This document shows positions 2,835 through 27,332 of a stretch of DNA of 32,917 bases, piece after piece. The stretch covers positions 151,380-184,296 of the forward strand of contig CP064989.1 in the NCBI GenBank assembly GCA_016699875.1, in the 5' to 3' direction. Position numbers and translations under genes: made by a program. Source of the DNA: Candidatus Moraniibacteriota bacterium (GTDB lineage Bacteria; Patescibacteriota; Minisyncoccia; Moranbacterales; UBA1568). Under the pieces are notes generated by a model, which was given only the letters and a program-made list of their open reading frames with translations, was not told the DNA's origin and did no database searches. Position 1 is the stretch's first letter. The number at the start of each line of letters is the position of its first letter.

Positions 2835-5222
2835 CTACGATACACGGAGAGTCCCTCCGATATGTGTCTCAATAGCCCGGACAATACCCGCAAAGACAAC
2901 GTCGGCCTCCTCGCCAGTCAGTGCCCTGTCCTCTCGTCCCATGCGAATATGGAAAGCAAGACTTCGCCCCTCATCGGGACTCATATAGCGGTCGAACAAC
3001 TCAGCATCCAATACCAATCCCTGACCGGAAGAAACGATACAATCCCGTACCTCAGCGACAGTAGTGCGCGAAGGAACAAAACAGGAAAGATCGCGCAACG
3101 TTTCCGGCTGCTTTCGGATCGGAGCAAAGATGCCTTCTCCCGGAATCGCCGAAAGCAATGCTCGCGTATCGAATTCGAAAGCAGCAACTCTCCCCGATAT
3201 ACCCATCCCCTTGAGAGGCGCCGGGTGCACCTCGCCCAAGGTACCAATACGCTCTCCACGGGCGGAAAATATATCCGCCGTACGGACGGGATGCCACAAA
3301 GACAAGGCGGTATTCTGATACGGGCGCACAGAATAAACAACTCGCAGCGAATCCAAGAGATGGGCCATTTCTGACATCAGTAAGACAAAAGGAGACGCCT
3401 CACCACCACGCTTCGACGAGACTCGAGCCACCCCGGACACCAACCTGGTTTCCACAACAGATTCTCCAGACCGCTCATACACCTTTCCAAGTTCGAACAT
3501 TCTGATATCGTGAAAACGCCGGCCATTGAAAGCAATATTCTTCAAAAGCCCCGGCAAAAGACTCTTTCGAACCAAAGTCTGATCCGGATTCATCGGATTG
3601 GCAAGAGAAAGGTGGGCATCTTTCTCGAAATGCAGCCGACTGGCATCCGATTCGCTATAGAAAGAATAGTTATATGATTCCGTGAATCCATTTGCCGAGA
3701 GGAAATCCCGAAGAGAGGCTTCGTGAGCACGGATCGGGTCATCAGAAGGAGAACCCAGTAAAAAGCTCGGCGCTACGCTCTCAATACGATCATAGCCGAT
3801 ACCTTTCCCAATCTCTTCGGCAATGTCCGCAACCGATTCAACATCAATCCGATAGGGTGGCGGCGTAGCGGATACCGTCTTCTCCTCAAGAGATACTTCA
3901 AACCCTCGCAATTCCAAGATTGACTTCATTTCTTTCACCGAGACGTCCGTACCCAAAAGAGATGTCACTGCCCGCGAAGAAAATTCGATAGATTTCGGCA
4001 GAGCAAAAGCACTGCGTTCCTCAGAAACGGAGACTACCTCACCGCCCGCAATATGTGATACCACCTCCAAGAGTCGCACCAATGCTCGCTCAGCAAGATC
4101 AGGAGAAAGACCTTTCTCGAATCGAGCCGAGGCGTCGCTCTCAATACCAAGCCGCGTCCGCGTCCGCCGGATAGAGACCGGATCAAAATGAGCCGCTTCA
4201 AAGAACACGTGCTTCGTCTTCGATGTCACTCCGGATGCGACACCACCCATAATGCCCCCTAAAGCAAGTGCTCGTTCGCTATCGGCAATGACAATATCTT
4301 CCGCGTCAAGCAAGTGCGACTTCCCATCCAAGAGCACAAGAGTCTCCCCGGGATTTGCAAGGCGCGGACCGATCTTCTTCTGTTCTGATCCGGCAATAGC
4401 ATCCCAATCGAATGCATGGAGCGGCTGCCCCAACTCAAGCATGATAAGATTGGTCGCATCAACAATGTTATTGATAGATCGCATTCCAAAGACGCTCAAC
4501 CGGTCAACAAGCCACTTGGGCGATACATCAACGGTGACATTCCGGACGAGCGCCCCGATATACCGATCACTTTTCCCCTTCGCTTCAAGTGAAATGGAGA
4601 AGAAAGATGAAAGCATATCCTCCGACTTCGGCAAAAGGAGTCCATCGTAATCATAATCCATCTTCCGATGTTCTAGTGCGGCAATCTCCCGCGAAAGCCC
4701 CACGTGTGACAAGCAGTCATGTGCTCGATCCGGCAGCACCTTCACATCAAGCACCGAGTCCGCAGTTGCCAAAAAGTCCGCAACTCCAGTACCTGCCTCC
4801 GCCTCTTCAGGCAAAACAAGAATACCTTCGTGATTCTCTCCAAGACCCAACTCCTTCTGGGAACAAATCATGCCGTCGGAAACAACGCCGCGAATATCCG
4901 TTTGTTTGATAAACACATCTCCGGGAAGCGATGCTCCCGGCAGAGCTACCGCCACCTTCTGGTTCAGTGCAAGATTCGGCGCACCGCACACAATTGTTTT
5001 CTCATTTCCTTCGCCAAGATTCACGCGCGCCACACGCAAGCGATCCGCATTCGGGTGTTGTTCAACCGAAAGTACTGTTCCAACAACGATATCCGGCAGC
5101 GAAAAACCCACCGGAACCACTTCTTCCACCTCAAATGCGCGCATCGTCAAAAAAGCCGCGAGCTCCTCGGGAGTTTTCTCTGTTCCGGAAAGTTCTTTGA
5201 GCCAACGATAGCTGAATTTCAT
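2835..5222 (-). CDS. pheT: Phenylalanine--tRNA ligase beta subunit
   Basis: 795 aa starting MKFSYRWLKEL, with an N-terminal tRNA-binding domain (VGTVLSVEQHPNADRLRVARVNLG) plus B3/4, B5 and FDX-ACB-like regions. ATG at 5222, 6 nt after the pheS stop. Confidence 0.97.
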   Translation of the reverse strand: MKFSYRWLKELSGTEKTPEELAAFLTMRAFEVEEVVPVGFSLPDIVVGTVLSVEQHPNADRLRVARVNLGEGNEKTIVCGAPNLALNQKVAVALPGASLPGDVFIKQTDIRGVVSDGMICSQKELGLGENHEGILVLPEEAEAGTGVADFLATADSVLDVKVLPDRAHDCLSHVGLSREIAALEHRKMDYDYDGLLLPKSEDMLSSFFSISLEAKGKSDRYIGALVRNVTVDVSPKWLVDRLSVFGMRSINNIVDATNLIMLELGQPLHAFDWDAIAGSEQKKIGPRLANPGETLVLLDGKSHLLDAEDIVIADSERALALGGIMGGVASGVTSKTKHVFFEAAHFDPVSIRRTRTRLGIESDASARFEKGLSPDLAERALVRLLEVVSHIAGGEVVSVSEERSAFALPKSIEFSSRAVTSLLGTDVSVKEMKSILELRGFEVSLEEKTVSATPPPYRIDVESVADIAEEIGKGIGYDRIESVAPSFLLGSPSDDPIRAHEASLRDFLSANGFTESYNYSFYSESDASRLHFEKDAHLSLANPMNPDQTLVRKSLLPGLLKNIAFNGRRFHDIRMFELGKVYERSGESVVETRLVSGVARVSSKRGGEASPFVLLMSEMAHLLDSLRVVYSVRPYQNTALSLWHPVRTADIFSARGERIGTLGEVHPAPLKGMGISGRVAAFEFDTRALLSAIPGEGIFAPIRKQPETLRDLSCFVPSRTTVAEVRDCIVSSGQGLVLDAELFDRYMSPDEGRSLAFHIRMGREDRALTGEEADVVFAGIVRAIETHIGGTLRVS

Positions 5223-15461: not shown

Positions 15462-16715
15462 TTATTCCCCGCGTATCGCCCGAATCGGATCTATCTTTGA
15501 CGCCTTCCACGCCGGATACGTCCCAAAGACTATTCCCGACAGAAAAGCAAACGCCACCGCAAACAGAACATTGTATATCGAAAACACAAAGGCAATCGAA
15601 AATCCAAGTGCTGCAATCGCCGAGAAAGCGAAGAAAATAATCACAAACGAAAGTGCGATCCCGATCGTCCCGCCGACAATCGCCACCAGAATCGCCTCCA
15701 CCAAAAACTGCCGCAAGATATCCCGCGGCCGCGCGCCCACCGCCTTGCGAAGCCCGATCTCCGGCGTCCGTTCGGCAACTGACACGAACATCACATTCAT
15801 AATGCCCACTCCGCCCACAACGAGCGAGATAGACGCGAGCGCCACCAAAAGAATTTGCACCGCACCAAAGACCGACTGCACCAAGGTCTGCGCCTCTTTG
15901 ATGGTCGTCACGGCATAGTCCTCTTGCCCGGCTTTGCGAATATCGTGCCGATCACGCAAGAGATCATATATCTCTCGCGCTGTCTCGTCGACGCGAGAGC
16001 CATCCCGTGCCGCCACTGTGAAGAAGCTCACGTAGTCGACACCGAGGATTTTCTTCTGCATGGTACGCAGAGGAATATACGCGAAATCATCGAAATTGAC
16101 AAACCCCGTCGAGCCGCGCTCTTTGATCACGCCCGCAACGCGATAACGCTGCCCTTTGATCGTAATCGACTGCCCCAACGCACTGCTCTCTCCGAAAAAC
16201 GTTTTCTTGATACCGGCGCCAAGCACTACTGTCTGCGCAATGCCTCGATCGTCGGCATTCGTATAGAAGCTCCCTTCGGTCAGAACAATATTCCGATCAA
16301 TTTGCGGCGCACCCGCCGTCGCTCCGAGAAGAAATATCTGTTTGTTTGTCTCATCCCGACTCGCGAGCGCCTGCCCAACGATGCCTGCATAGTACCCCGA
16401 GACATTCGGCAAGCGCGCAACCGCATCCGCATCGTCGAGCGTGAGCGTCGTCACTTGTATACCCTGCGCGATTCCCGTCGCATTCCCGGACGAATTCCGC
16501 CCTGCCGACGGCACCTTCACCTCGACCTGAATGCTATTGTCCCCGAAGCTCTTCACCTGATCGAGCACGAATCCCTCGACCGCATCCCCCGCCGACGCGA
16601 CTGTCATGATGGCGACTGTCCCGATGATAATTCCCGAGAGCGTGAGCAATGTCCTCCCGGCATTCGCCGCAAGACTCTTCACCGCAAAAGACAACGAAAG
16701 AAGCAGTTCGTGCAT
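15462..16715 (-). CDS. ABC transporter permease, MacB/FtsX family (copy 1)
   Basis: N-terminal TM, a large periplasmic MacB_PCD-like domain and a C-terminal FtsX domain (SISLVVGGVGIMNVMFVSVAERTPEIGLRKAVGARPRDILRQFLVEA). ATG 16715 (MHELLLSL) is preferred over TTG 16769. Confidence 0.9.
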   Translation of the reverse strand: MHELLLSLSFAVKSLAANAGRTLLTLSGIIIGTVAIMTVASAGDAVEGFVLDQVKSFGDNSIQVEVKVPSAGRNSSGNATGIAQGIQVTTLTLDDADAVARLPNVSGYYAGIVGQALASRDETNKQIFLLGATAGAPQIDRNIVLTEGSFYTNADDRGIAQTVVLGAGIKKTFFGESSALGQSITIKGQRYRVAGVIKERGSTGFVNFDDFAYIPLRTMQKKILGVDYVSFFTVAARDGSRVDETAREIYDLLRDRHDIRKAGQEDYAVTTIKEAQTLVQSVFGAVQILLVALASISLVVGGVGIMNVMFVSVAERTPEIGLRKAVGARPRDILRQFLVEAILVAIVGGTIGIALSFVIIFFAFSAIAALGFSIAFVFSIYNVLFAVAFAFLSGIVFGTYPAWKASKIDPIRAIRGE

Positions 16716-16881
16716 CCCGAAAAAAAACCCGTTACACTTCTTCACCTTATCACAAAGAAGACTCCACAAGAAGCGTTTTTTAGTATAAAACCAGAAGAAA
16801 AAGTGACTCTCTCACCCCCCCCTTCCTTTTTGCTCGCCTGCTTTGGCTTCGCCCCCAAAACTTTTCGGCGGGACGGCGGCT

Positions 16882-17167: not shown

Positions 17168-17830
17168 TTATTTCTTATTCAAACGCTTTGCCTTTTGCGG
17201 AATTACATAAACAGTTTTGATGAGGTTTTCAACAATATCCATTGCGATATCAAGCTCCTCATCACTTGCGGCGATTGTTTCGTGTGCCGAATTATTGCCT
17301 AGCAGTCTTGTGCTGTGTAAGGTTTCTGCGCTGTCTTGAGTTAGTACGCCCTTGGTAACCAAATCATCAATCTTGTTTTCCAAATTGGCACCTCGTGCTT
17401 CTTTTTCTCTGCACACAGATTCAACCAAAGCTCTTATCCCTATTCCAGCAAGAATACCTAGCCGACCACATAAAGCCCCATGAGTTTCTTTATAAATTTT
17501 CAAAACCCCATCTGGCAGCAAATACATGTCTTTAACTTGTTTTCTGCCAGCAATTCTGCTTGGATATAGTTTTATATCCTCATCATAATAAACTTCGCCA
17601 GTTTCTGGGTCATAGCTCATATCTTCAGAACAAGAAGAAGTTGTGCGGAAAGAAACCTCTTTGCAACCCTGACAAATAATTATTTCGTAATAACGCGAAA
17701 CGGAAATTTCGTCTTCTGATTCCAAGACATTCACGGAAAATAAAACTTTATGACAAGTCTCGCCGTCGCACTTTATGCAAGCGAGATCGTATTCTTCGTC
17801 TTTGGTTTTATCATACTCAATCTTGCGCAT
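17168..17830 (-). CDS. Zinc-ribbon plus DUF4145 domain protein (220 aa)
   Basis: N-terminal four-Cys ribbon (CIKCDGETCH ... CQGCKEVSF). The C-terminal helical domain matches the DUF4145 pattern as I remember it (IRALVESVCRE...KIDDLVTKGVL...LHSTRLLGNNSAHE...DIAMDIVENLIKTVY). ATG 17830 lies 2 nt after the hsdM-hsdS stop (17833). Confidence 0.8.
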   Translation of the reverse strand: MRKIEYDKTKDEEYDLACIKCDGETCHKVLFSVNVLESEDEISVSRYYEIIICQGCKEVSFRTTSSCSEDMSYDPETGEVYYDEDIKLYPSRIAGRKQVKDMYLLPDGVLKIYKETHGALCGRLGILAGIGIRALVESVCREKEARGANLENKIDDLVTKGVLTQDSAETLHSTRLLGNNSAHETIAASDEELDIAMDIVENLIKTVYVIPQKAKRLNKK

Positions 17831-17832
17831 AT

Positions 17833-20325
17833 CTATAAAATATCGTTAATCAACTGGGATATTTTTTTCTCAAAAATATCAATCGTTTTTGCTGAAGCCG
17901 ACACACACTCTTTTTCTTTTGAAATTTCATCAACAATTTCTTTTTGAACTTCAATCGGTGGAAGCGGCACAGTTATTGTCGCAAAATTTTTCTGGTATAT
18001 GGCGGCAACGCTCGTTGTTCCACTCACCAAAGTTTTTATTTTTTGTTTGCCTTCCTCTGTATTGAGATAGTAGTTAACATAATCAGGATCAGTTTCTTTT
18101 CTGAATCTAATCCTTAAAATATTGTTGTTGAACAAATATTTTCCGTCTTCGCCGTGATAAACAGTAGATTTACCGACCAAATTCGGGGCGTTTCTTGTGT
18201 TGTAAATAAAATCGCCGTCGCTTAGAATGTATTTTTCTAATTCTTCTTTACTAGCCTCCACATGAGCAACGGAATCCAACTCTAGATTTCCGTCTATTGT
18301 GATGTTATCCATTTTTATATATGGATATGGAAAAACATCCGCTTGCATTGATTTATCTTTAACTAACCCAAGCTTTGTGTCCAAAAATAAATTGCCTAAT
18401 TCGATAATTTGCCAAGACGGATCAACCTTGATTGTTGGTTTATAATTACTGATAATTTGTTTTGCGCTGTCAATAATATGTTGATATTTTTCAATCTGCT
18501 CAACAATTTCTTTTTGAACTTCAATCGGCGGGAGTGGAAAAATAAATAATTCTTTAAGTTTTGATGGCCTTACTTCTTTGATCGTAACCCCTGTTGCTAA
18601 AGATTGGATATACTCTTTTTTGTTTTCTAAAATACGGGCTAGAAATTCAGGTAAAATTTTATTTTTATCAACAACAATCCCAGACAATCCTTGCTTTGTT
18701 GCTGTAGGAACTTTTGCAATTCCAACATTGCCAATAGTTGCACCCAAAGAAATAATTATTGATCCGACAGGCCAAACTTTAGCAGAACTATTTTCCAGCC
18801 CAAGTTTGGTTAATTTTTCCGTAGTGTCAAAAATTTCTGATTTAATATCTTTCACAACACACCAACAAATATCCCCGCCAAAATATTCTGGTTTTCTTCT
18901 AGACGGAGTGCCTCCATCTTTCATGTCAATCACAGTATCACCAAGTTTTACAAGAGGCCATTTTACATTAGAATAACTAAGCACAGTTTTATATCTCTCT
19001 CCCGAAAGATTATAATCTCCCGCCGCAATTATTTTTTCTTTGGAAACAATATGAGCGATTTGCTTTTCGTCTTCGCTAAATTTTTTATCGTCTAAAGACG
19101 ATTTGTATTTCTTGATAACTTCCAATGCCAAAGGCAAATCGTTTTTATTATGTTCCCGCCTTTGCGCGCCTAAATCAAAACCGTCATTTTGAATTTTTAC
19201 AAACAAAAAGTTTTTTGTTTTCTTTGAAATCTCATTATCAAAAAGTAAGATACTGGTTTTTACTCCCGCATAGGGATTAAATACACCGGCAGGAAGCGAA
19301 ACGACAGAAAAAAGCCCATCCTCAATTAATTTTTTACGCAACTGCGTATAAGCATTATTTGATTGAAAAATTATTCCTTCGGGAACGATTATTCCAGCCC
19401 GTCCTTTTATTGTTAAATGCTCAACGATATAATCCACAAAAAGCACTTCCGCGCGATTCGCCTGAATAGAAAATCTTTTGTGGGGAACAATTCCGCCTTT
19501 TGGTGTCATAAATGGCGGATTTGCCATTATTACATCAAATGTTTCGTCCCATCTTTTTTCGCTTGAAAGTGTGTCATATTCATGGATTTTTGGTTCTGGG
19601 AATCCATGTAGATACATATTCACAAGTGCCAATTTCACCATATCGGGCGAAATATCATAGCCCGACAAATTATTCATCAATTTCAATTTTTCATCTGGCG
19701 TGAGTGGTTTTTCTTTGTTGGTTTTCAAAATGTGCTTGTAGGCAGAAATCAAAAATCCGGCCGTCCCGCAAGCGGGATCAAGGATTGTTTCATTTTTCTT
19801 CGGATCAACCACTTCAACGATAAAATCAATGATGTGACGAGGCGTGCGGAATTGCCCCGCATCGCCTTGGCTTCCGAGAATGGAAAGCAGGTATTCAAAA
19901 GCATTGCCTAAATTTTCGCTATGTTCGTAATTAAATTCGTTGATCTCTTTGAGGAACAGCGAAAGTGTACGCGAGTCGTTGTATGGCAAAAATGCACCTT
20001 TGAAAATATCACGGAACAATTGCGGAATATGCGGATTTTTCGACATATTCGTAATTGCCTGAACATACAGATCGAGGCGTTCTTGTCCCGAAAGCCTGTT
20101 ATCCAAGAGTTTCGTCCAAGCGTATTGCGAAAATCCGTTGGCGAAAAATTTTGCCTCTCCGCCAAGTTCTTCCGATTCCTTGTCCATATCGTCCATAAAC
20201 TTATAGACGAGAGCGGTTGTGATTTGCTCAACTTGCGCCTTGGGGTCTGGCACTTTGCCGACAAGGATTTGCCTCGCAGAGTCAAGTTTTCTTTTTGTAA
20301 CTTGATCAAGCATATCAATATTCAA
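17833..20325 (-). CDS. hsdM: Type I restriction-modification methyltransferase fused to the specificity subunit (HsdM-HsdS fusion, 830 aa)
   Basis: N6-adenine MTase motifs: GQFRTPRHII, motif I DPACGTAGFL, motif IV VIMANPPF. These are followed by two target-recognition domains, each ending in a conserved helix (FPLPPIEVQKEIVEQIEKY and VPLPPIEVQKEIVDEISKE). The start is either TTG 20325 (11-nt overlap with the upstream ORF) or ATG 20313 (1-nt spacer). Confidence 0.93.
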   Translation of the reverse strand: MNIDMLDQVTKRKLDSARQILVGKVPDPKAQVEQITTALVYKFMDDMDKESEELGGEAKFFANGFSQYAWTKLLDNRLSGQERLDLYVQAITNMSKNPHIPQLFRDIFKGAFLPYNDSRTLSLFLKEINEFNYEHSENLGNAFEYLLSILGSQGDAGQFRTPRHIIDFIVEVVDPKKNETILDPACGTAGFLISAYKHILKTNKEKPLTPDEKLKLMNNLSGYDISPDMVKLALVNMYLHGFPEPKIHEYDTLSSEKRWDETFDVIMANPPFMTPKGGIVPHKRFSIQANRAEVLFVDYIVEHLTIKGRAGIIVPEGIIFQSNNAYTQLRKKLIEDGLFSVVSLPAGVFNPYAGVKTSILLFDNEISKKTKNFLFVKIQNDGFDLGAQRREHNKNDLPLALEVIKKYKSSLDDKKFSEDEKQIAHIVSKEKIIAAGDYNLSGERYKTVLSYSNVKWPLVKLGDTVIDMKDGGTPSRRKPEYFGGDICWCVVKDIKSEIFDTTEKLTKLGLENSSAKVWPVGSIIISLGATIGNVGIAKVPTATKQGLSGIVVDKNKILPEFLARILENKKEYIQSLATGVTIKEVRPSKLKELFIFPLPPIEVQKEIVEQIEKYQHIIDSAKQIISNYKPTIKVDPSWQIIELGNLFLDTKLGLVKDKSMQADVFPYPYIKMDNITIDGNLELDSVAHVEASKEELEKYILSDGDFIYNTRNAPNLVGKSTVYHGEDGKYLFNNNILRIRFRKETDPDYVNYYLNTEEGKQKIKTLVSGTTSVAAIYQKNFATITVPLPPIEVQKEIVDEISKEKECVSASAKTIDIFEKKISQLINDIL
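17931..17961. repeat. Copy 1 of the intragenic direct repeat in the hsdS portion
   Basis: caacaatttctttttgaacttcaatcgg (17931-17958) is identical to 18501-18528. Identity resumes after one mismatch. Confidence 0.9.
18501..18531. repeat. Copy 2 of the intragenic direct repeat in the hsdS portion
   Basis: A 28-nt exact copy of 17931-17958, offset by 570 nt (190 codons, in frame). Confidence 0.9.
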
Positions 20326-20743
20326 AGATTATATCTTCGAAATTACAATCCATTTTCTCTGGAAAAATTATCAAAAATGCAAATTTGTAATTGAGATGAC
20401 CTTTATCATTTTTTAGATCTGTTTTTGCATTTTCAATTTCATCAGCTGAATCATTAAATTTTTTTGTTTGAATTATAATCAAATTATCGTTTTGATTACC
20501 TCTAGAATGAATAACTATATCTGGTTTTATTAAATCGTTCTGACTATTTCTCTTGCTTCTTTCTTCAAAACGATTGTATTCACAATCAATATTATAGCCA
20601 GAGAAATGTCCCGAATTTTCTAGATAGTGCGCCAATCTATGTGACAAAGATTGCTCATGAATATCTCGGTTGCAATCGCCGACCATATATCCATTTTCTG
20701 TAACAACTTTTTTTAAAGCTTCCAAAATTATTTCTTTATACAC
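20315..20743 (-). CDS. Uncharacterised 142-aa protein embedded between hsdR and hsdM-hsdS; possible degenerate PD-(D/E)xK fold
   Basis: GTG start at 20743, 4 nt after the hsdR stop (20748). Its stop at 20315 abuts or overlaps the hsdM start. Motif order: helix with E30 (DIHEQSLSHRLAHYLE), NIDCEYNR, IKPDIVIH (P74-D75), LIIIQTKK (Q92-x-K94). Confidence 0.65.
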   Translation of the reverse strand: MYKEIILEALKKVVTENGYMVGDCNRDIHEQSLSHRLAHYLENSGHFSGYNIDCEYNRFEERSKRNSQNDLIKPDIVIHSRGNQNDNLIIIQTKKFNDSADEIENAKTDLKNDKGHLNYKFAFLIIFPEKMDCNFEDIIFEY

Positions 20744-20747
20744 AAAT

Positions 20748-23264
20748 TTATCTCATATATTGATTAACTGATACATAGTCTTTTACATATTCAGGAACAG
20801 TTTCCCGCCAGCCGTTTAATTCCTTAAATTCCGACATTGTAAACCCAGCGTACACATTCAACTCCGCAAATTGCTTTTTGTTGATAATCTCGCGGAATTT
20901 TTCGTCCGCAACATACGCTTTCAGATAATTTTTGATATGCGGAACATATTTGCTTTCGGGCTTGTAGATTGAGATAAATTTTTCGCACTCCTCTTCCAAT
21001 TTTTCATCTTTGGACTTGAAAACATCAATCAAGCCGAAAGCTCTTTCCAAAAATTCCCGCCAAGAAATACGGCGATCAAGATTTTCACTCTTGCGGATTT
21101 TTTCAAGATTTAAGAATAATTGCGGTTTATCTTCGTATTTGTCGCGCATAATTTGCACGGCTTTGTCCCACTGCTCGTTTTCAACGGCTGATTTTACTTC
21201 CGTGTCTTTTTGCAATTCTTCACGGGCTTTTTCAAAAAGTTTGCGATCAACTTTCATCCCCTCGATTCCGACAGGGGTTTCGGTGAGCGTTTTTACTTTA
21301 TCGGGATTGAAAACTTCTATTTCATCAATATCAACGCCGACAGGTCCTTCCCCGCCAGTTCCTTTTTGTTTGATTGGCAGTTGCAAAATTTCGTCATAAT
21401 CAAACTTTTCTTCAAAGTATTCGCAGTTGGCGAAGAAGTCGAAAAATTTGAAATGGTCTTTTGACGCTTTGTGTTTTTCACCGTATTCGTCGGTATATTC
21501 AAAGGTGAATTTTCTCGTGCCTCGTCCTTTGATCTGAATAAAATCAGTCGGTGAAAAGATCGGGCGCATAAGCGCGAGATTCAAAATGTCTTGGCAATCA
21601 TAACCAGTCGTCATCATTCCGACAGTTACACAAACCCTCGTTTTACTTGATTTGTAATTTTCCAAAAACTTGGTGTGTCCGTTTAGATTGTTATTTGCGA
21701 AATTGATTGTGAATTGCTGACTATCCGCAATATTTGAGGTGATTTGCACTGCAAAATCAGAATTGTATTTGTCGGGCCAAAGCTGGCTCGCCATTCGATT
21801 GAGTGTTTGCGTTATTTTGGAAGCATGTTTTTGGCTAACGCAAAATATAATGCTTTTGCCGATTTCACTACTTATCGGGTCCTTGAAAGCGTTTTCAATA
21901 AATGTCTGGCAAAAGACGTGATTGGTTTTTTCGGAAAAGAATTTCTTTTCAAAATCCTTTTGGAAAAATGTTTCTTCGCTCTCTGTGCCATTTTCATCTT
22001 CAACCATAACCGCATAACCCTTTTCCGATAGCAATTCGGTGGTGATGTCGGTTCGCGCGTCTGAAACGATAGGATTGATCAAAAATCCTTCTCGCACACC
22101 GTCAAGCAAGCTGAAACGGAAAGTCGGCTCGCCGTTTTTACAGCCAAAAGTCGTGTAAGTGTCCAAGAGTTGCCGTCTTTCCCAAGCTCGCGGATCTTTT
22201 TGTGAAAGTTTTTGCGGATCAATATTTTTCAAATAATCTCTCGGTGTTGCGGTTAAGCCCAATTTATAACCGATGAAATATTCAAAAACTGCTCGCGAGT
22301 TTCCGCCGATCGCGCGGTGCGATTCATCAGCTATAATCAAATCAAAATCAGTCGGCGAAAAAAGTTTTTTGTATTTATCTTGCGCCGAAAGACTTTGGAC
22401 TGTTGAAATGACAATTTCCGCCTTTTTCCAATCGTCGCGGTTTTGTTTGTAAATAACTGATGAAAAATCATTGCTCAAATAGCGGACAAAATTTTTGTGT
22501 GCCTGATCTTCCAATTCCAAACGATCAACCAAAAACAGAATTCTTTTAGCGTTTCCTGTTCGTAAAAATAGTTTGATAACGGCGGCGGAAATAAGGGTTT
22601 TGCCTGTTCCTGTCGCCATTTCAAAAAGAAAGCGATCATTTCCAGCTTCGGCGGATTTTTGCAAAGCGTGAATTGCTTTCAGCTGATACGGGCGCAAAAT
22701 TCGCAAGTTTTCGTCCCAAAGATATTGTTCGCGGGTTTCTTCTTTCTGATAACGAGGATCATCTTTGAAATTTGGATTTTGCGTAAGGGCGATATAATCA
22801 TCATTGACTTCTTCGTCCGCTAAACGCTGATTGTCGGGCTTGAAGTCCTGTCTGTGTTTCAACGATTCTTGCGTTGGAAATTCCGTGATAATTTCAGGAT
22901 CGCCTCGTTCCAAATCCCAAAAATAATGAAGATTGCCATTTGAGAGAATAACAAAGCGAGCGTTTTCGGTGTGAGCGTATTTTCTCGCTTGTTCTTTTCC
23001 GTCTAACGGATTTTTACCTTCCTTTTTGGCTTCCAAAACAACAAGCGGAAAGCCTGTTTCATCAAACAAAAGGAAATCAACAAAGCCGTTTTTTGTGGAC
23101 TCAAAATCTTCTCCAAAAGCGTCAATGTCTTTCTGTGTAAGCCTTACATTTGATTCAAGTTGGATATTTGCCTGTCCTTTCCCGTCATCAAAAAATCTCC
23201 AGCCCGCCTGCTCAAGCAGTTTGTTTATTTTTATTCGCGCTTTCGCTTCTTTTGAATGATCCAT
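20748..23264 (-). CDS. hsdR: Type I restriction endonuclease subunit R (EcoEI-like, 838 aa)
   Basis: HsdR N-terminal nuclease domain (KARIKINKLLEQAGWRF; VDFLLFDETGFPLVVLEAKKEG gives D...EAK). SF2 helicase motifs (MATGTGKT, DLIIADESHRA, VGMMTTGYDCQDI, QIKGRGTR). The C-terminal helical region resembles the EcoEI R C-terminal domain. ATG 23264 is preceded by GGAGGT (complement of 23268-23273). Confidence 0.93.
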   Translation of the reverse strand: MDHSKEAKARIKINKLLEQAGWRFFDDGKGQANIQLESNVRLTQKDIDAFGEDFESTKNGFVDFLLFDETGFPLVVLEAKKEGKNPLDGKEQARKYAHTENARFVILSNGNLHYFWDLERGDPEIITEFPTQESLKHRQDFKPDNQRLADEEVNDDYIALTQNPNFKDDPRYQKEETREQYLWDENLRILRPYQLKAIHALQKSAEAGNDRFLFEMATGTGKTLISAAVIKLFLRTGNAKRILFLVDRLELEDQAHKNFVRYLSNDFSSVIYKQNRDDWKKAEIVISTVQSLSAQDKYKKLFSPTDFDLIIADESHRAIGGNSRAVFEYFIGYKLGLTATPRDYLKNIDPQKLSQKDPRAWERRQLLDTYTTFGCKNGEPTFRFSLLDGVREGFLINPIVSDARTDITTELLSEKGYAVMVEDENGTESEETFFQKDFEKKFFSEKTNHVFCQTFIENAFKDPISSEIGKSIIFCVSQKHASKITQTLNRMASQLWPDKYNSDFAVQITSNIADSQQFTINFANNNLNGHTKFLENYKSSKTRVCVTVGMMTTGYDCQDILNLALMRPIFSPTDFIQIKGRGTRKFTFEYTDEYGEKHKASKDHFKFFDFFANCEYFEEKFDYDEILQLPIKQKGTGGEGPVGVDIDEIEVFNPDKVKTLTETPVGIEGMKVDRKLFEKAREELQKDTEVKSAVENEQWDKAVQIMRDKYEDKPQLFLNLEKIRKSENLDRRISWREFLERAFGLIDVFKSKDEKLEEECEKFISIYKPESKYVPHIKNYLKAYVADEKFREIINKKQFAELNVYAGFTMSEFKELNGWRETVPEYVKDYVSVNQYMR

Positions 23265-23522: not shown

Positions 23523-24266
23523 TCAATGTGGCATAAATGGAAAGTGCTTATTAAAATCCGCCAACTCTCTGACATACGACTGCACCAATAATACAGAAAC
23601 CGGCCAATACATCAGGTTGCCCAAGTATTTTGACCATTGTGACTGTATGGGCAAATCCGGAACAATTCGTATATTTCCTTCCTGTATTTCATCTTCACTT
23701 ATATGACCCAACGCAGTCACAAGATAGTTTCTACTTTTCCAATTTGTTCCGATGGAATTATGTACCCCAAGCACCGGAAAACGTTGACCCGCCTTTAACT
23801 TGTGTATTGTTTTAAGTGCAGATGGAATAAACATCTCGTCTCGGATTTGTATCGAGGACATTTGATTATCTTCCAAAAAAACATCAACCTGATTTTTTTG
23901 CTCTGCCGTTGGTCTATCAGGATAAACATCTTTTCTCTCTATAAAAGAACCGCTTCCATCGCTAAAGCCTCTATAAAAACTATCCTTTAGAACCTCCACC
24001 TGCGTCCCTTCCTGCAGAATCGGAAACACCCACGGATTTTTGTAGAGCGTCATGCTTATGGCTATGCACACAGCGATAAAAACGATAGAAAACATCTTGC
24101 GGTATTTCTGACCCGATCGAAACGAGAATATTATGAGAAACGCCATAAACGGCGTCGCCATCCAAAATCCAGTCTCACCAACATTGAACGCTCCACCGAG
24201 CGAGAAGACTGCCGATATAATGACTGCTACCACCGTGACAACTTTGACAAGTCGGGATTTTTCCAT
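23523..24266 (-). CDS. Hypothetical membrane protein (247 aa)
   Basis: ATG at 24266. Three N-terminal TM segments (VVTVVAVIISAVFSLGGAF, FWMATPFMAFLIIFSF, FSIVFIAVCIAISMTLY), a soluble region of about 150 aa, and a hydrophobic C-terminal segment (LMYWPVSVLLVQSYV). No family recognised. Composition is intermediate between the island and the flanks. Confidence 0.6.
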   Translation of the reverse strand: MEKSRLVKVVTVVAVIISAVFSLGGAFNVGETGFWMATPFMAFLIIFSFRSGQKYRKMFSIVFIAVCIAISMTLYKNPWVFPILQEGTQVEVLKDSFYRGFSDGSGSFIERKDVYPDRPTAEQKNQVDVFLEDNQMSSIQIRDEMFIPSALKTIHKLKAGQRFPVLGVHNSIGTNWKSRNYLVTALGHISEDEIQEGNIRIVPDLPIQSQWSKYLGNLMYWPVSVLLVQSYVRELADFNKHFPFMPH

Positions 24267-24316: not shown

Positions 24317-25564
24317 TTACTCATACCGCAGCGCCTCCATCGGGGAGACGCGGGCGGCGCGGCGGGCGGGATAGAGGCCGAAGATAATACCGATAAGAAG
24401 CGAAACAGCAAAGGCGACACCGGCAGCTTGAAAGGTGAGAAGAAATGTCCATTCGTAACCGGCCGCACGTATGCCGAGTGCGGAAAGATAGGTCAACAGG
24501 ACACCGAAGACAAAACCAAAAAACCCGCCGAGAAGCGAAAGAAACACCGCTTCGATAAGAAATTGCACCAAGATATCCGAATCGCGCGCACCCACCGCCT
24601 TGCGAAGCCCCACTTCGCGGATGCGCTGCTTAAGCGCAATCAGCATGATATTCATGATACCGATGCCGCCCACAAAAAGCGATATACTGGCAACGAACGA
24701 AAGAAAATATTTGAGTATATCAGTGATCGATCCCAGTATCGAGATCGCGTCGGCAGTGTTCCGAATTGAGAAATCGTCGGGCGAATCCGTCTTGATACGA
24801 TGCCGATCGCGAAGAAGCGCGCGTATCGTGTCGACCGTATGCGAAATATTTTTCTCGTCATCCACCTTGAGCCGCGCGAAATTAAGATAGTCGATACCAA
24901 GCAATATTTTCTGAGCGGTTTCGAGCGGGATATAGATCGTTGCATCCGTATTCGAAAAACTCGAGCTCCCCTTCGACTCGAGAACACCGACTACCGTAAA
25001 GCTCGTATCTCCCAGAGAGAATCGTCTTCCGATCGGGTCTTCCGTCCCAAACAAATCCGTCGCACGCGTCGCTCCCAAAACCGCAACACGACCGAGTCCG
25101 GATACTTCATCCGCAGAAAAGAACCTGCCATGAGCCAATGGGAGGTTCTCGACCTGAGGAAGCGCCGCGGAGACACCCTGATACGATACGGACAGCGATT
25201 CTCCCTGAAAAGTCGCCGTGGCCGAACCCGTCACATAGCCCGATCCGGCAACAATATGCGGTACACGACTCTTCTGCAAAATCGCATCGAGATCCTTATT
25301 GGTAAAGGTCGTCGTCACGACGCCGAAAACGCTTGCGGGCGGCCCCTTCGGATCGGACGCACCCGGAAGCACCGCGATCAAGTTCGATCCGACACTCCTG
25401 ATCTGGCCCAATATAAAATCCTGCGCCGACGCGCCGATAGACATAACAAGGAAGACCGCGGCGATGCCGATCACCATGCCAAGCACCGTGAGTATCGTAC
25501 GCCCCTTCGCAACGGAAAGATTCCGCAAAGCGACGCGAACAGACTGAAGTATTCTCCGAAACAT
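24317..25564 (-). CDS. ABC transporter permease, MacB/FtsX family (copy 2)
   Basis: Same architecture as 15462-16715 and alignable to it along the whole length (SISLFVGGIGIMNIMLIALKQRIREVGLRKAVGARDSDILVQFLIEA). ATG 25564 (MFRRILQSV) is preferred. The track extension to 25630 overlaps the upstream gene. Confidence 0.9.
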   Translation of the reverse strand: MFRRILQSVRVALRNLSVAKGRTILTVLGMVIGIAAVFLVMSIGASAQDFILGQIRSVGSNLIAVLPGASDPKGPPASVFGVVTTTFTNKDLDAILQKSRVPHIVAGSGYVTGSATATFQGESLSVSYQGVSAALPQVENLPLAHGRFFSADEVSGLGRVAVLGATRATDLFGTEDPIGRRFSLGDTSFTVVGVLESKGSSSFSNTDATIYIPLETAQKILLGIDYLNFARLKVDDEKNISHTVDTIRALLRDRHRIKTDSPDDFSIRNTADAISILGSITDILKYFLSFVASISLFVGGIGIMNIMLIALKQRIREVGLRKAVGARDSDILVQFLIEAVFLSLLGGFFGFVFGVLLTYLSALGIRAAGYEWTFLLTFQAAGVAFAVSLLIGIIFGLYPARRAARVSPMEALRYE

Positions 25565-25586
25565 GCTCTCAGTATAGCACTTCGAT

Positions 25587-27332
25587 CTACCCGAATGTGA
25601 AAGCGTGCACATGAGCAGCGCCCTCCTCAAATTTGAGCCGTAAGAGATGCTGTCCGGGAGAAGAAAGATGAATCAAGTGATAGAGCCGATCACTATCAAC
25701 AGTCACTGTACCACCTTCATTATCACTGCCAAAACTCTGAACTACCCCATCCAGAGAAACATGTACACGAGCAGAAACATCCGCACGCTCCGGCCGCATC
25801 ACCAAAAATACATCTTGCGCATCAAATTCGAACACGAGTTCGGCGCCGGGTGACGGCGTCGCATATTCTTGCCCGACCGTCCACATTCCCGAAAAAGCGA
25901 ATCGACTCAAAGAGAGTGCACTCGGCGCCGTATATATTGCTGGCATATCGATTTGTATCGGCTCCGGCGAGGAGAATCTCTCCATGCGAGCAGAACCCAC
26001 ATAAGTTTCCGGCGTTCTTGCAAAGACCGTATAGGAAGGATTATCCGTCGTTGTCGGCACATCCTGTTCCCCTGCTTCTCGGAGAAGTTCTTGAATGACA
26101 CGCTCACTCCCGTCGTAATCGCCTTCGCCGAAATGGTGATACCGAATATTCCCTTCCGCATCGATAAAATATTTTGCCGGCCAGTAGTGATTGTCATAGA
26201 CTCGCCAGGTCGCAAAGTTGTTATCCTGCACGATCGGATATGTGAGACCAAAGTCAGCAACCGCTTTCCGGACATTGTCGGCGCTTTTCTCGAACTCGAA
26301 TTCCGGCGCATGCACACCGATAATCACCAATCCTTTGTCGGCATATTTTTCATTCCACGCTCGAAGATACGGAAGCGTCCGCTGACAATTGATGCACGAA
26401 TAGGTCCAAAAATCGATAAGCACGACTTTACCGCGAAGAGCTTCGAGTGAGAGCGGCTCGCTATTAATCCAAACGCCTCCAGAAATAATTTCCGGCGCCG
26501 GAACACCCTTTGGCTGCAAATCAAAAAGTGGCTTCCCAGTCATATCCGAACCAGCATCTCCTCCCACCACTTGATCGCCGCGCAGTTTTGACAATTCTCC
26601 TCGAATAAATCCGGTATCTTCAAACGAGGTAAGACCGGAACCATAGTTTGGAAACACCGTAAGCACGAATGTTTGAAATTTCCGGTCCGCCTGCACCAAT
26701 ATGGCAAATGCCGTCACTATCATCACCACACCGAATGCTCGTTGAATCGCCGCACCATGAGACAAAAGCCATGGCACTCGCTGAAGGAGCGCTCGCCCTC
26801 CCCACATCACAAGAAGCATCGGAAACGCCGCACCCGCCGAATACGCCAGAGTGAGAAGAAATGCCGAGAAAGATACAGTGCCCGTTACCGCAAGCGTAAT
26901 CACCGAAGCAAGAATGGGACCCACACACGGCGTCCAAAGCAACCCCAAAGAAACACCGATAAAGAGACCTGGAAGAAATCCGCCTCTGGAAGAAACCGTC
27001 GGAATGAATCGAGTCAACTTTGAGGAAAGTGCCTCAAGCGCAAGCTGTACTCGTGGCACCAGAAGAGAAAACCCAAATCCGGCAATCACAACCACCGAAA
27101 GAAGTCGCAAAGTATCAGCAGACACGCCGATTGCGTTTACAATCGCCGAAAGAAAGAGCGTGAACAGCGTAAAGCTCAAAACAAACCCAACAACAACGCC
27201 TATCGGCCGCGACTTCCCTATTGCAGCATCACCAACACTCGACGACAGAATAATCGGCAACACCGGAAGAATACACGGCGAGAGCACCGTTACGATTCCA
27301 GCCGCAAAAGCGAATAAAACAAGAAGTATCAT
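25587..27332 (-). CDS. DipZ-like fusion: CcdA/DsbD-type thiol-disulfide transporter, TlpA/ResA-like thioredoxin domain and a C-terminal beta-rich domain
   Basis: N-terminal CcdA core (VLSPCILPVLP; LLWTPCVGPIL), a periplasmic thioredoxin fold with CxxC (DFWTYSCINCQRTLP), and a C-terminal domain of about 170 aa. The three-part architecture matches mycobacterial DipZ as I recall it. Confidence 0.88.
   Translation of the reverse strand: MILLVLFAFAAGIVTVLSPCILPVLPIILSSSVGDAAIGKSRPIGVVVGFVLSFTLFTLFLSAIVNAIGVSADTLRLLSVVVIAGFGFSLLVPRVQLALEALSSKLTRFIPTVSSRGGFLPGLFIGVSLGLLWTPCVGPILASVITLAVTGTVSFSAFLLTLAYSAGAAFPMLLVMWGGRALLQRVPWLLSHGAAIQRAFGVVMIVTAFAILVQADRKFQTFVLTVFPNYGSGLTSFEDTGFIRGELSKLRGDQVVGGDAGSDMTGKPLFDLQPKGVPAPEIISGGVWINSEPLSLEALRGKVVLIDFWTYSCINCQRTLPYLRAWNEKYADKGLVIIGVHAPEFEFEKSADNVRKAVADFGLTYPIVQDNNFATWRVYDNHYWPAKYFIDAEGNIRYHHFGEGDYDGSERVIQELLREAGEQDVPTTTDNPSYTVFARTPETYVGSARMERFSSPEPIQIDMPAIYTAPSALSLSRFAFSGMWTVGQEYATPSPGAELVFEFDAQDVFLVMRPERADVSARVHVSLDGVVQSFGSDNEGGTVTVDSDRLYHLIHLSSPGQHLLRLKFEEGAAHVHAFTFG

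Follow-up and report, generated by a model that had tools for sequence, protein, structure and literature searches.

PD-lambda-3 is a validated abortive-infection system, whose activity was shown only for the three-gene form of Escherichia coli (PMC9519451; PMC13190303). The system came from the functional screen of Vassallo et al., in which the ECOR28 proteins RCP74640-42, encoded by 2,759 bp, are described as 'Nuclease, HEPN' (PMC9519451 supplement), and the complete system has been reported in Proteobacteria only. Accessory defence genes embedded in Type I restriction-modification (R-M) operons are also a described phenomenon (PMC3710099; bioRxiv 10.1101/2024.01.29.577857); the genes embedded in this way are often defence genes, and the arrangement has been read as multi-layer defence (Anantharaman et al., PMC3710099; Payne et al.). 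Here we describe a gene that bears on both, the 142-aa open reading frame (ORF) X, located at positions 20315-20743 on the minus strand of a 32,917-nt stretch (hereafter, the window) of contig CP064989.1 (assembly GCA_016699875.1, positions 151,380 to 184,296) of a Candidatus Moraniibacteriota bacterium. X lies between the hsdR and hsdM genes of a Type I operon, in which it is an optional cargo. We assign its product to the family of PD-lambda-3 component A, with a predicted PD-(D/E)xK fold.

The PADLOC model PD-Lambda-3_A (PDLC03986) matched X with an E-value of 7.6e-12 (residues 8-126 against positions 22-144 of the 159 of the profile), and the same model was matched by 64 of 64 diverse members of the X family, with a best E-value of 2.5e-35. 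A BLASTP comparison of X with the E. coli A protein (ECOR28 RCP74640.1 / WP_001542736.1) gave 31% identity (E = 8e-15). The two proteins, of 142 and 159 aa, share family, size and the motifs E...CEYNR...PD..H...xK-K, and differ in the last of these motifs, which reads LVL-E-F-K-K in E. coli A and III-Q-T-K-K in X. These matches indicate that X belongs to the PD-lambda-3 component A family. The genomic context is different. E. coli A, a 159-aa protein annotated as 'hypothetical', is encoded by the gene that opens an abortive-infection operon of three genes, together with a Ymh-type HEPN protein B (267 aa, TIGR02391/Hypoth_Ymh) and a protein C (477 aa) composed of an Mrr_cat domain, which carries a canonical E-C-K, and a propeller-like region; TIGR02391/Hypoth_Ymh is a HEPN family (PMC3710099). 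X, in contrast, is found in a Type I R-M operon with no B or C homologue. The PD-Lambda-3 B and C models had no match among the window proteins, the neighbours of X being HsdR, HsdM-S and a DUF4145 protein, and the window therefore holds no complete PD-lambda-3 system. Nor was B or C found beside the non-enterobacterial A members, among the neighbours of 38+ loci.

In E. coli itself, PD-lambda-3 is present in 45 of 5,426 complete genomes, and some strains retain only A and B, near other defence genes. The 2,759-bp operon was recovered on enterobacterial plasmids, and the complete system also on enterobacterial chromosomes. On the chromosome of E. coli KFu022 (L136:5001-6305) a pair of A and B (Ymh-HEPN) genes occurs without the Mrr-type C; a different gene, encoding a 312-aa hypothetical protein, precedes the pair, and a Qat system and a HEPN/Toprim-associated protein adjoin it. 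This pair suggests that A and B form the conserved core of PD-lambda-3 and that the third gene is exchangeable.

Members of the A family were found in Paceibacterota, Dehalococcoidia, Thermotogae, Actinomycetota, Bacteroidota, Verrucomicrobia, Omnitrophota, Asgard archaea and Methanoperedenaceae. All 1,739 database proteins of the family are annotated as 'hypothetical' and have no Pfam domain, the family has no Pfam, NCBIfam or PHROG model, and X itself had no match in Pfam, NCBIfam or PHROGs. Weak matches of X to DUF5715 (E = 0.026) and to LAGLIDADG proteins of the PDB (E = 0.19) were dismissed as noise. A single informative domain fusion was found for the family, in the 328-aa protein P0074, which has an N-terminal RusA Holliday-junction resolvase domain (E = 8e-8) and a C-terminal X-family domain with Lys at position 92. 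We also observed family genes split or frameshifted into two ORFs (L034:2899-3138 and 4182-4481; L049:714-1272; L050:286-844), in Bathyarchaeia and in an unclassified bacterium. These copies are apparent pseudogenes, which indicates occasional loss of the family by decay.

The initial annotation of this locus, made from the DNA letters, had placed the 142-aa ORF between hsdR and hsdM, with a GTG start codon 4 nt after the hsdR stop, and had listed the residues of a nuclease-like motif. Reading of the minus strand agrees in all of these respects. The hsdR-X junction is ...ATG AGA TAA-ATTT-GTG TAT AAA..., the ORF ends with TGA, and the motif residues and their numbering are correct (DIHEQSLSHRLAHYLE at 27-42, NIDCEYNR at 51-58, P74-D75, and LIIIQTKK at 88-95, which includes Q92-x-K94). 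A chance reading frame is excluded, since the ORF has homologues with E-values down to 1e-50, a family of thousands of clusters and fewer nonsynonymous than synonymous differences. The nine nearest homologues are 52-65% identical to X, with 54 invariant columns. An exhaustive HMMER profile search of 1.84 billion representative proteins retrieved 3,407 representative clusters at E <= 1e-3, of which 1,102 reached E <= 1e-10; most clusters measure 140-190 aa. The proportion of nonsynonymous differences (pN) between X and four relatives was 0.26-0.34, and that of synonymous differences (pS) was 0.76-0.86 in these pairs and up to 0.95 overall, a saturated value that rules out an estimate of dN/dS and limits the statement to pN << pS. 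These data show X to be a genuine, conserved gene under purifying selection.

To place X within its operon lineage we used 80 metagenomic sibling loci (L056-L135), whose HsdR proteins are 80-97% identical to that of the window. A homologue of X was present in none of them. Both R and M are on the contig in 55 of these loci; hsdM begins 5-22 nt past the hsdR stop in 40, and in the other 15 a different gene occupies the hsdR|hsdM slot. These cargo genes, of at least six unrelated kinds, encode RhuM/PDC-S05 (6 loci), Bro-N/PDC-S13 (2 loci), KilA-N/PDC-S22, a trypsin-like peptidase (Trypsin_2)/PDC-S45 and proteins of 279 aa (2 loci), 193 aa and 87 aa with no Pfam or PADLOC match, the last three being candidate new defence genes (examples of slot cargo are L082:2796-3830, L080:3982-4836, L124:2886-3713, L129:2773-3612, L123:7514-8353 and L112:5524-6105). 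A blastn alignment of the window with L056, which has no X, showed 91.5% nucleotide identity in hsdR and 88.9% in hsdM and stopped exactly at 20748 and 20314. The intervening segment (20315-20747, minus strand) is an inserted cassette of 433 nt and 28% guanine plus cytosine (GC), made up of the ATTT leader and the X ORF, and stands in place of the spacer CCAAAAATATT, which measures 5-22 nt among the siblings. The empty-slot junction reads TAA-CCAAAAATATT-ATG, and in its wider context TATATGAGGTAA-CCAAAAATATT-ATGCTTGATCAA. The GC content of X is 28.2%, compared with 40.1% in hsdR and 37.2% in hsdMS. Since X is absent from all 80 siblings, other cargo takes the same position and the edges of the insertion are exact, the junction is a cargo slot and X is an optional cargo, dispensable to the operon. 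The initial annotation had considered a second nuclease-like protein within a Type I operon to be unexplained by the standard model; the difficulty disappears, as the siblings do without X, the slot accepts other genes and the family is found mostly outside R-M loci. We also observed that the six bases AATATT immediately before the hsdM start are common to the 3' end of X (GAA TAT TGA T ATG) and to the empty spacer (CCAAAAATATT ATG), as seen by comparing window positions 20311-20325 with L056:3399-3412. This sharing could reflect microhomology at the right-hand junction of the insertion, or be a coincidence.

The context of the family was analysed in 38 loci, taking one genome per species. Six of them are clear Type I contexts and two are possible ones, so that embedding in Type I operons is far more frequent than expected for a random gene, yet concerns a minority of the loci. 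The remaining members are solitary, and no conserved partner gene was found among the neighbours of the 38+ family loci; the sample of close-relative loci is biased by the two peptide patterns used to collect it. The locus most similar to that of the window is a Paceibacterota R-X-MS operon (L003), with an HsdR 67% and an X 57% identical to their window counterparts. The gene orders in the other loci are M-X-S-R in Thermosipho, M-X-RhuM-S-R in Demequina, M-X-S-RhuM-R in a verrucomicrobium, M-X in Methanoperedenaceae, M-S-?-X-R in Anaeromassilibacillus and M-…-X-S-…-R in Omnitrophota, and also M-X-?-?-S-…-R and X-S-…-Fic-R. The embedded genes usually have overlapping or abutting stop and start codons. 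The window X and the Paceibacterota X occupy the same slot and fall in different sub-clades, which makes it probable that they entered it independently. In the Paceibacterota operon the 3' slot, which in the window carries a RAZR-like gene (see below), holds genes for a 644-aa OLD/AriA-like AAA_15 ATPase and a 172-aa protein (L003:8320-10772; also L017; L023:4555-6486). A homologous AAA_15 ATPase gene lies two genes upstream of the X-family gene in a Freyarchaeota genome.

X can be compared with the genes already known to be embedded in R-M operons, such as PrrC in EcoprrI, RloA-H, RhuM, DOC/Fic, HEPN proteins and the PADLOC 'PDC' candidates. Like these, X is optional, nested between hsd genes and on the same strand, has tight junctions and is present patchily among close relatives. 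It thus has the genomic traits used in 'guilt-by-embedding' searches, being nested, co-oriented and variably present among related operons. PrrC, a HEPN anticodon RNase that also has an ABC ATPase domain, is almost exclusively embedded, whereas X is a small protein with a predicted PD-(D/E)xK fold, whose family occurs mainly outside R-M loci. With 6-8 of 38 loci in a Type I context and a different fold, X does not correspond to a guard of the PrrC type.

The structure of X was modelled with AlphaFold2, which gave a predicted local distance difference test (pLDDT) score of 84.6 with an alignment of 9 sequences, and of 93.6, with a predicted template-modelling score of 0.87, with an alignment of 64. 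The model shows a helix at 30-42, strands at 51-54, 76-79 and 87-95, a helix at 100-116 and a strand at 119-127, that is, the alpha-beta-beta-beta-alpha-beta core of the PD-(D/E)xK superfamily. Foldseek searches of the PDB with both models retrieved essentially only restriction-endonuclease-like proteins. They comprised the DrdV (Type IIL) nuclease domain (E = 2.5e-3 to 2.8e-3, probability 1.0, template-modelling (TM) score 0.46-0.54), BstEII, Hjc, the R2 RLE domain, NucC, 3ijm, EcoRV, Cas4 SSO0001 and TT1808. Among viral models the best match was a 'PD-(D/E)XK nuclease' of Halogranum tailed virus 1 (E = 4.3e-5). No solved structure in the PDB matched X at E < 1e-3 in Foldseek, and nothing was found in the PDB by a sequence search with X or by a profile search with 64 family members, which indicates a divergent branch of the superfamily. 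X is therefore predicted to have the restriction-endonuclease-like fold that the initial annotation had suggested from the order of its motifs.

With the DrdV/MmeI-like N-terminal nuclease domain, archaeal Hjc and 3ijm, X shares the core fold and the order of the predicted catalytic elements, which are a Glu in the helix, an Asp in beta2 and (E/Q)-x-K in beta3, at a TM score of about 0.5, 12-18% identity and E > 1e-3. X differs from these minimal nucleases in having no recognisable DNA-recognition domain, and it adds the invariant E55 and H79 and the CEYNR motif, none of which was seen in the structural matches listed. His79 and the extra Glu55 recall the two-metal PD-(D/E)xK site of cap-snatching endonucleases, which is composed of His/Glu/Asp/Glu/Lys.

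Conservation was assessed in 159 sequences, corresponding to the 150 best representatives and 9 close homologues, and the signature of the family is E30, C54-E-Y-N-R58, P74-D75, H79 and E92-x-K94-K95. E30 (codon 20654-20656, minus strand, as are all codons given here) lies at the N-terminal end of core helix alpha1, which spans residues 30-42, and is Glu in 157 of the 159. The family-specific motif C54-E55-Y56-N57-R58 (20570-20584), at the end of strand beta1, has C54 in 139 sequences, E55 in 157, Y56 in 157, N57 in 147 and R58 in 131 (with Lys in 27 more). The segment P74-D75-I-V-I-H79 (20507-20524), at the start of beta2, contains the 'PD' and an invariant His (P74, 158; D75, 158; H79, 159). 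Finally, Q92-T93-K94-K95 (20459-20470), encoded by CAA ACA AAA AAA, lies in strand beta3, with Q92 at 20470-20468 (CAA) and K94 at 20464-20462 (AAA); the family consensus is E-x-K-K, with K94 in 155 sequences and K95 in 128. In the alignment, the predicted catalytic residues E30, D75 and K94 are thus present in X and near-invariant, and the (D/E) position is occupied by Gln. The family has a clear predicted site of six residues (E, E, D, H, E/Q and K) that can be mutated.

Position 92 was counted in 269 sequences, of which 255 have Glu, 10 have Gln and 4 have another residue or a gap. The initial annotation had looked to D75, Q92 and K94 for conservation among homologues: D75 (158/159) and K94 (155/159) are conserved, and Q92 is not, as Glu takes its place in 95% of the family, the orthologue from the same operon type among them. 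Given this predominance, Gln92 is derived, and a minority state. Its carriers are a monophyletic group that contains X (P0001-P0005), separately P0007, and at least four more distant members (P0021, P0088, P0138 and P0139), and all of these keep the remaining signature residues. In the pair of Gln-bearing genes for which DNA was available, X and L001, pS was 0.82 and pN was 0.26. Of the 14 non-Glu states 10 are Gln, despite Asp, Gly, Val, Ala and Lys also being one mutation away from Glu, and we take this to reflect selection for a side chain that is isosteric and uncharged, and not loss of constraint. All R-M-embedded members other than X have Glu at this position, and the nearest Gln-bearing relatives of X are solitary genes, so the change is no adaptation to R-M embedding. 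Taken together, Gln92 is a derived variant of a normally canonical ExK site that arose several times.

We consider it somewhat probable that X is a small, autonomous and exchangeable PD-(D/E)xK nuclease carried as cargo, not a subunit of the restriction enzyme, and that it either adds a layer of defence against phages and mobile genetic elements (MGE) or benefits from co-transfer. Its product would be a metal-dependent nuclease of about 150 aa, probably oligomeric, encoded by the 433-nt cassette that would have landed precisely in the hsdR|hsdM slot. There it would be transcribed together with the R-M genes and probably coupled to them in translation, and by analogy with PrrC, RhuM, DOC/Fic and the HEPN proteins of other Type I operons it would most likely act as a second, independent anti-phage or anti-MGE layer, or gain from co-transfer and co-expression. 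Gln92 removes one negative charge from the predicted metal site, with E30, E55, D75, H79 and K94 still under selection. Because selection still acts on these other residues, the replacement by Gln in particular recurs, and '(D/E/Q)xK' counts as an accepted form of the motif (Payne et al.), Gln92 probably lowers or alters catalysis with function kept, and X would be a working gene and not a decaying copy.

Several observations weigh against this explanation. The PD-lambda-3 A family is not basic on average (median isoelectric point 6.2; X, 5.3), and the structural similarity is at the level of the fold, with TM scores of about 0.5 and no PDB match at E < 1e-3. Some 80% of the species-representative loci hold a solitary copy, in many cases amid housekeeping genes and with no immunity partner, and such isolation is unusual for a freely active DNase. 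Moreover, the replacement of Glu by Gln at this position usually cripples cleavage in classical PD-(D/E)xK enzymes, as in EcoRI E111Q, a charge-neutralising substitution by which cleavage is lost and binding is kept, and by this precedent X could be non-catalytic. In that case, which is the alternative raised by the initial annotation, Gln92, replacing the metal-binding Glu of ExK, would abolish cleavage, and X would be a DNA-binding sensor, a regulator or a scaffold. It might, for instance, hold or mark a target on which the restriction enzyme expressed with it, or another effector, then acts. Conservation of the other residues of the site is equally compatible with a role in binding only. 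Nevertheless we regard a non-catalytic X as unlikely, as Gln is accepted in the (D/E/Q)xK motif of active members of the superfamily, the additional family-specific ligands E55 and H79 could compensate, the orthologue in the same slot keeps Glu, which implies no 'dead' role specific to R-M operons, and the nearest Gln-bearing relatives are solitary.

The insertion itself could be taken as the work of a selfish nuclease, a cassette resembling a homing endonuclease that propagates by cutting empty sites, without benefit to the host. A precise, ORF-sized, low-GC insertion between two conserved genes, the patchy distribution with solitary copies in unrelated contexts, the split or frameshifted copies (L034, L049/L050) and the presence in one slot of the window X and the L003 X from different sub-clades, which suggests repeated targeting, would all fit such an element. 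The slot, however, also takes RhuM, Bro-N, KilA-N and a protease, so that the slot itself explains the insertions, and its acceptance of non-nuclease cargo weakens the homing model. Family members are also found at several positions in Type I operons and at many other sites, the enterobacterial A is stably linked to a HEPN partner in a validated defence system, and the family, deeply conserved across phyla, is under strong purifying selection; a selfish element is thus improbable. We find it highly improbable that X is a housekeeping structure-specific nuclease, a resolvase of the Hjc/RusA kind or a repair enzyme, present in the operon only incidentally. Its size and fold are like those of archaeal Hjc (Foldseek 2wiw, E = 0.011), the family protein P0190 has a weak match to Pfam Hjc (PF01870; E = 0.0027, 18 bits against a cut-off of 21.1 bits), P0074 is fused to RusA and many members lie amid housekeeping genes. 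The Hjc similarities are nevertheless below significance and X has no Pfam Hjc match, while the gene is sporadic and strain-variable (0/80 siblings), embedding in defence loci (6-8/38) is far above what is expected of housekeeping genes, and A sits in a validated defence operon. The same siblings bear on the idea that X is an integral additional subunit or cofactor of the Type I enzyme, such as a second cleavage module or an assembly factor. The 4-nt and 1-nt junctions on one strand and the R-X-MS order kept in the Paceibacterota operon, with its 67% identical HsdR, speak for it, but presence throughout the operon lineage, which is expected of a subunit, was not observed: X is absent from all 80 of the closest operons sampled, R and M being intact, and 5-22 nt apart in 40 of the 55 loci with both genes. 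In addition, HsdR has its own intact D...EAK and most family members are not near R-M genes. The chance of a subunit role is very small, and the 0/80 count nearly excludes it.

The host operon of the cargo is entirely on the minus strand. The hsdR-type gene (20748-23264) encodes a restriction subunit of 838 aa with ResIII, HSDR_N and HSDR_N_2 domains, and its nuclease motif, already recognised as intact in the initial annotation, is D63...E78-A-K80. The hsdM-hsdS fusion (17833-20313) has an N6_Mtase and two Methylase_S domains. The mechanical ORF call starts at TTG 20325, which is probably wrong: the starts of the orthologues align with M5, which corresponds to the ATG at 20313, 1 nt past the TGA of X. 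With this start, the 4-nt and 1-nt junctions around X are consistent with coupled translation. The HsdM-S proteins of the siblings have either about 610-660 aa, with one target-recognition domain (TRD), or about 805-845 aa, with two, and these two size classes suggest that specificity switches in the operon lineage by gain or loss of a TRD. A promoter scan found 20 sites, with no excess over shuffled sequence (19.0 +/- 4.9). Terminator-like sites numbered 12, against 6.4 +/- 2.4 in shuffled sequence, and none was on the minus strand at the gene junctions inside the operon.

The last gene of the operon (17168-17830, minus strand) begins 2 nt after the hsdMS stop and encodes a protein of 220 aa that has a Cys4 Zn-ribbon at its N terminus and a DUF4145 (HEPN) domain (1.4e-16) at its C terminus. 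The protein is matched by PADLOC PD-T7-4 (1e-8) and phrog_1305, and is a RAZR/PD-T7-4 homologue. RAZR is a HEPN RNase that is activated by phage ring proteins and aborts infection (PMC13017515). A RAZR-like gene occurs in only 5 of the 80 sibling operons (L081, L083, L084, L110 and L118), all without X, and it is therefore cargo in its own right, which occupies a 3' slot. For the same reason we rejected a functional pairing of X with the RAZR-like HEPN protein, comparable to that of A and B in E. coli.

All four genes lie in a low-GC island of about 7.4 kb (~16.9-24.3 kb), whose GC content is 35-42%, compared with about 50% for the flanks and the genome. The island is flanked by paralogous FtsX/MacB-like ABC permease genes (15462-16769 and 24317-25630, both on the minus strand), which are 35% identical (E = 1e-77). 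The window contains no tRNA gene, and the borders of the island show no obvious sign of integration; integrase genes and flanking repeats were not searched for. Inside the island, just upstream of hsdR, there is also an ORF of 247 aa (23523-24266, minus strand, 42% GC) with hydrophobic N-terminal segments and no NCBIfam match.

These results remove an apparent anomaly, since the 'second nuclease' is no part of the Type I mechanism but an exchangeable cargo of a slot, a pattern that is now used to discover defence genes ('guilt-by-embedding'). Three points we did not find described before: the great size of the A family, which extends over many phyla and is missing from Pfam and NCBIfam; its behaviour as an autonomous cassette, landing repeatedly in Type I operons; and its defined E/E/D/H/(E>Q)/K signature. 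Component A of PD-lambda-3 has no published function; it belongs to a family of thousands of clusters in many phyla and has a predicted site that can be mutated. The operon lineage offers a natural experiment, as near-identical R-M operons are empty or carry X, RhuM, KilA-N, Bro-N or a protease, a set that allows a test of whether embedded genes act with the restriction enzyme or independently of it. Likewise, the recurrent E-to-Q switch is a natural test of the requirement for catalytic charge at this site. As a tentative idea, possible but rather doubtful, the A protein may be more than an accessory of a rare three-gene system of Proteobacteria and would be the founding member of a very large family of stand-alone immune nucleases or sensors across bacteria and archaea, which would plug into Type I R-M systems or Ymh-HEPN RNases or act alone, with the E-to-Q forms being attenuated or restricted to binding and so limiting self-damage beside a restriction enzyme. 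X is a useful entry point to an uncharacterised defence-associated family of predicted nucleases and to the cargo-slot architecture of the operons that carry it.

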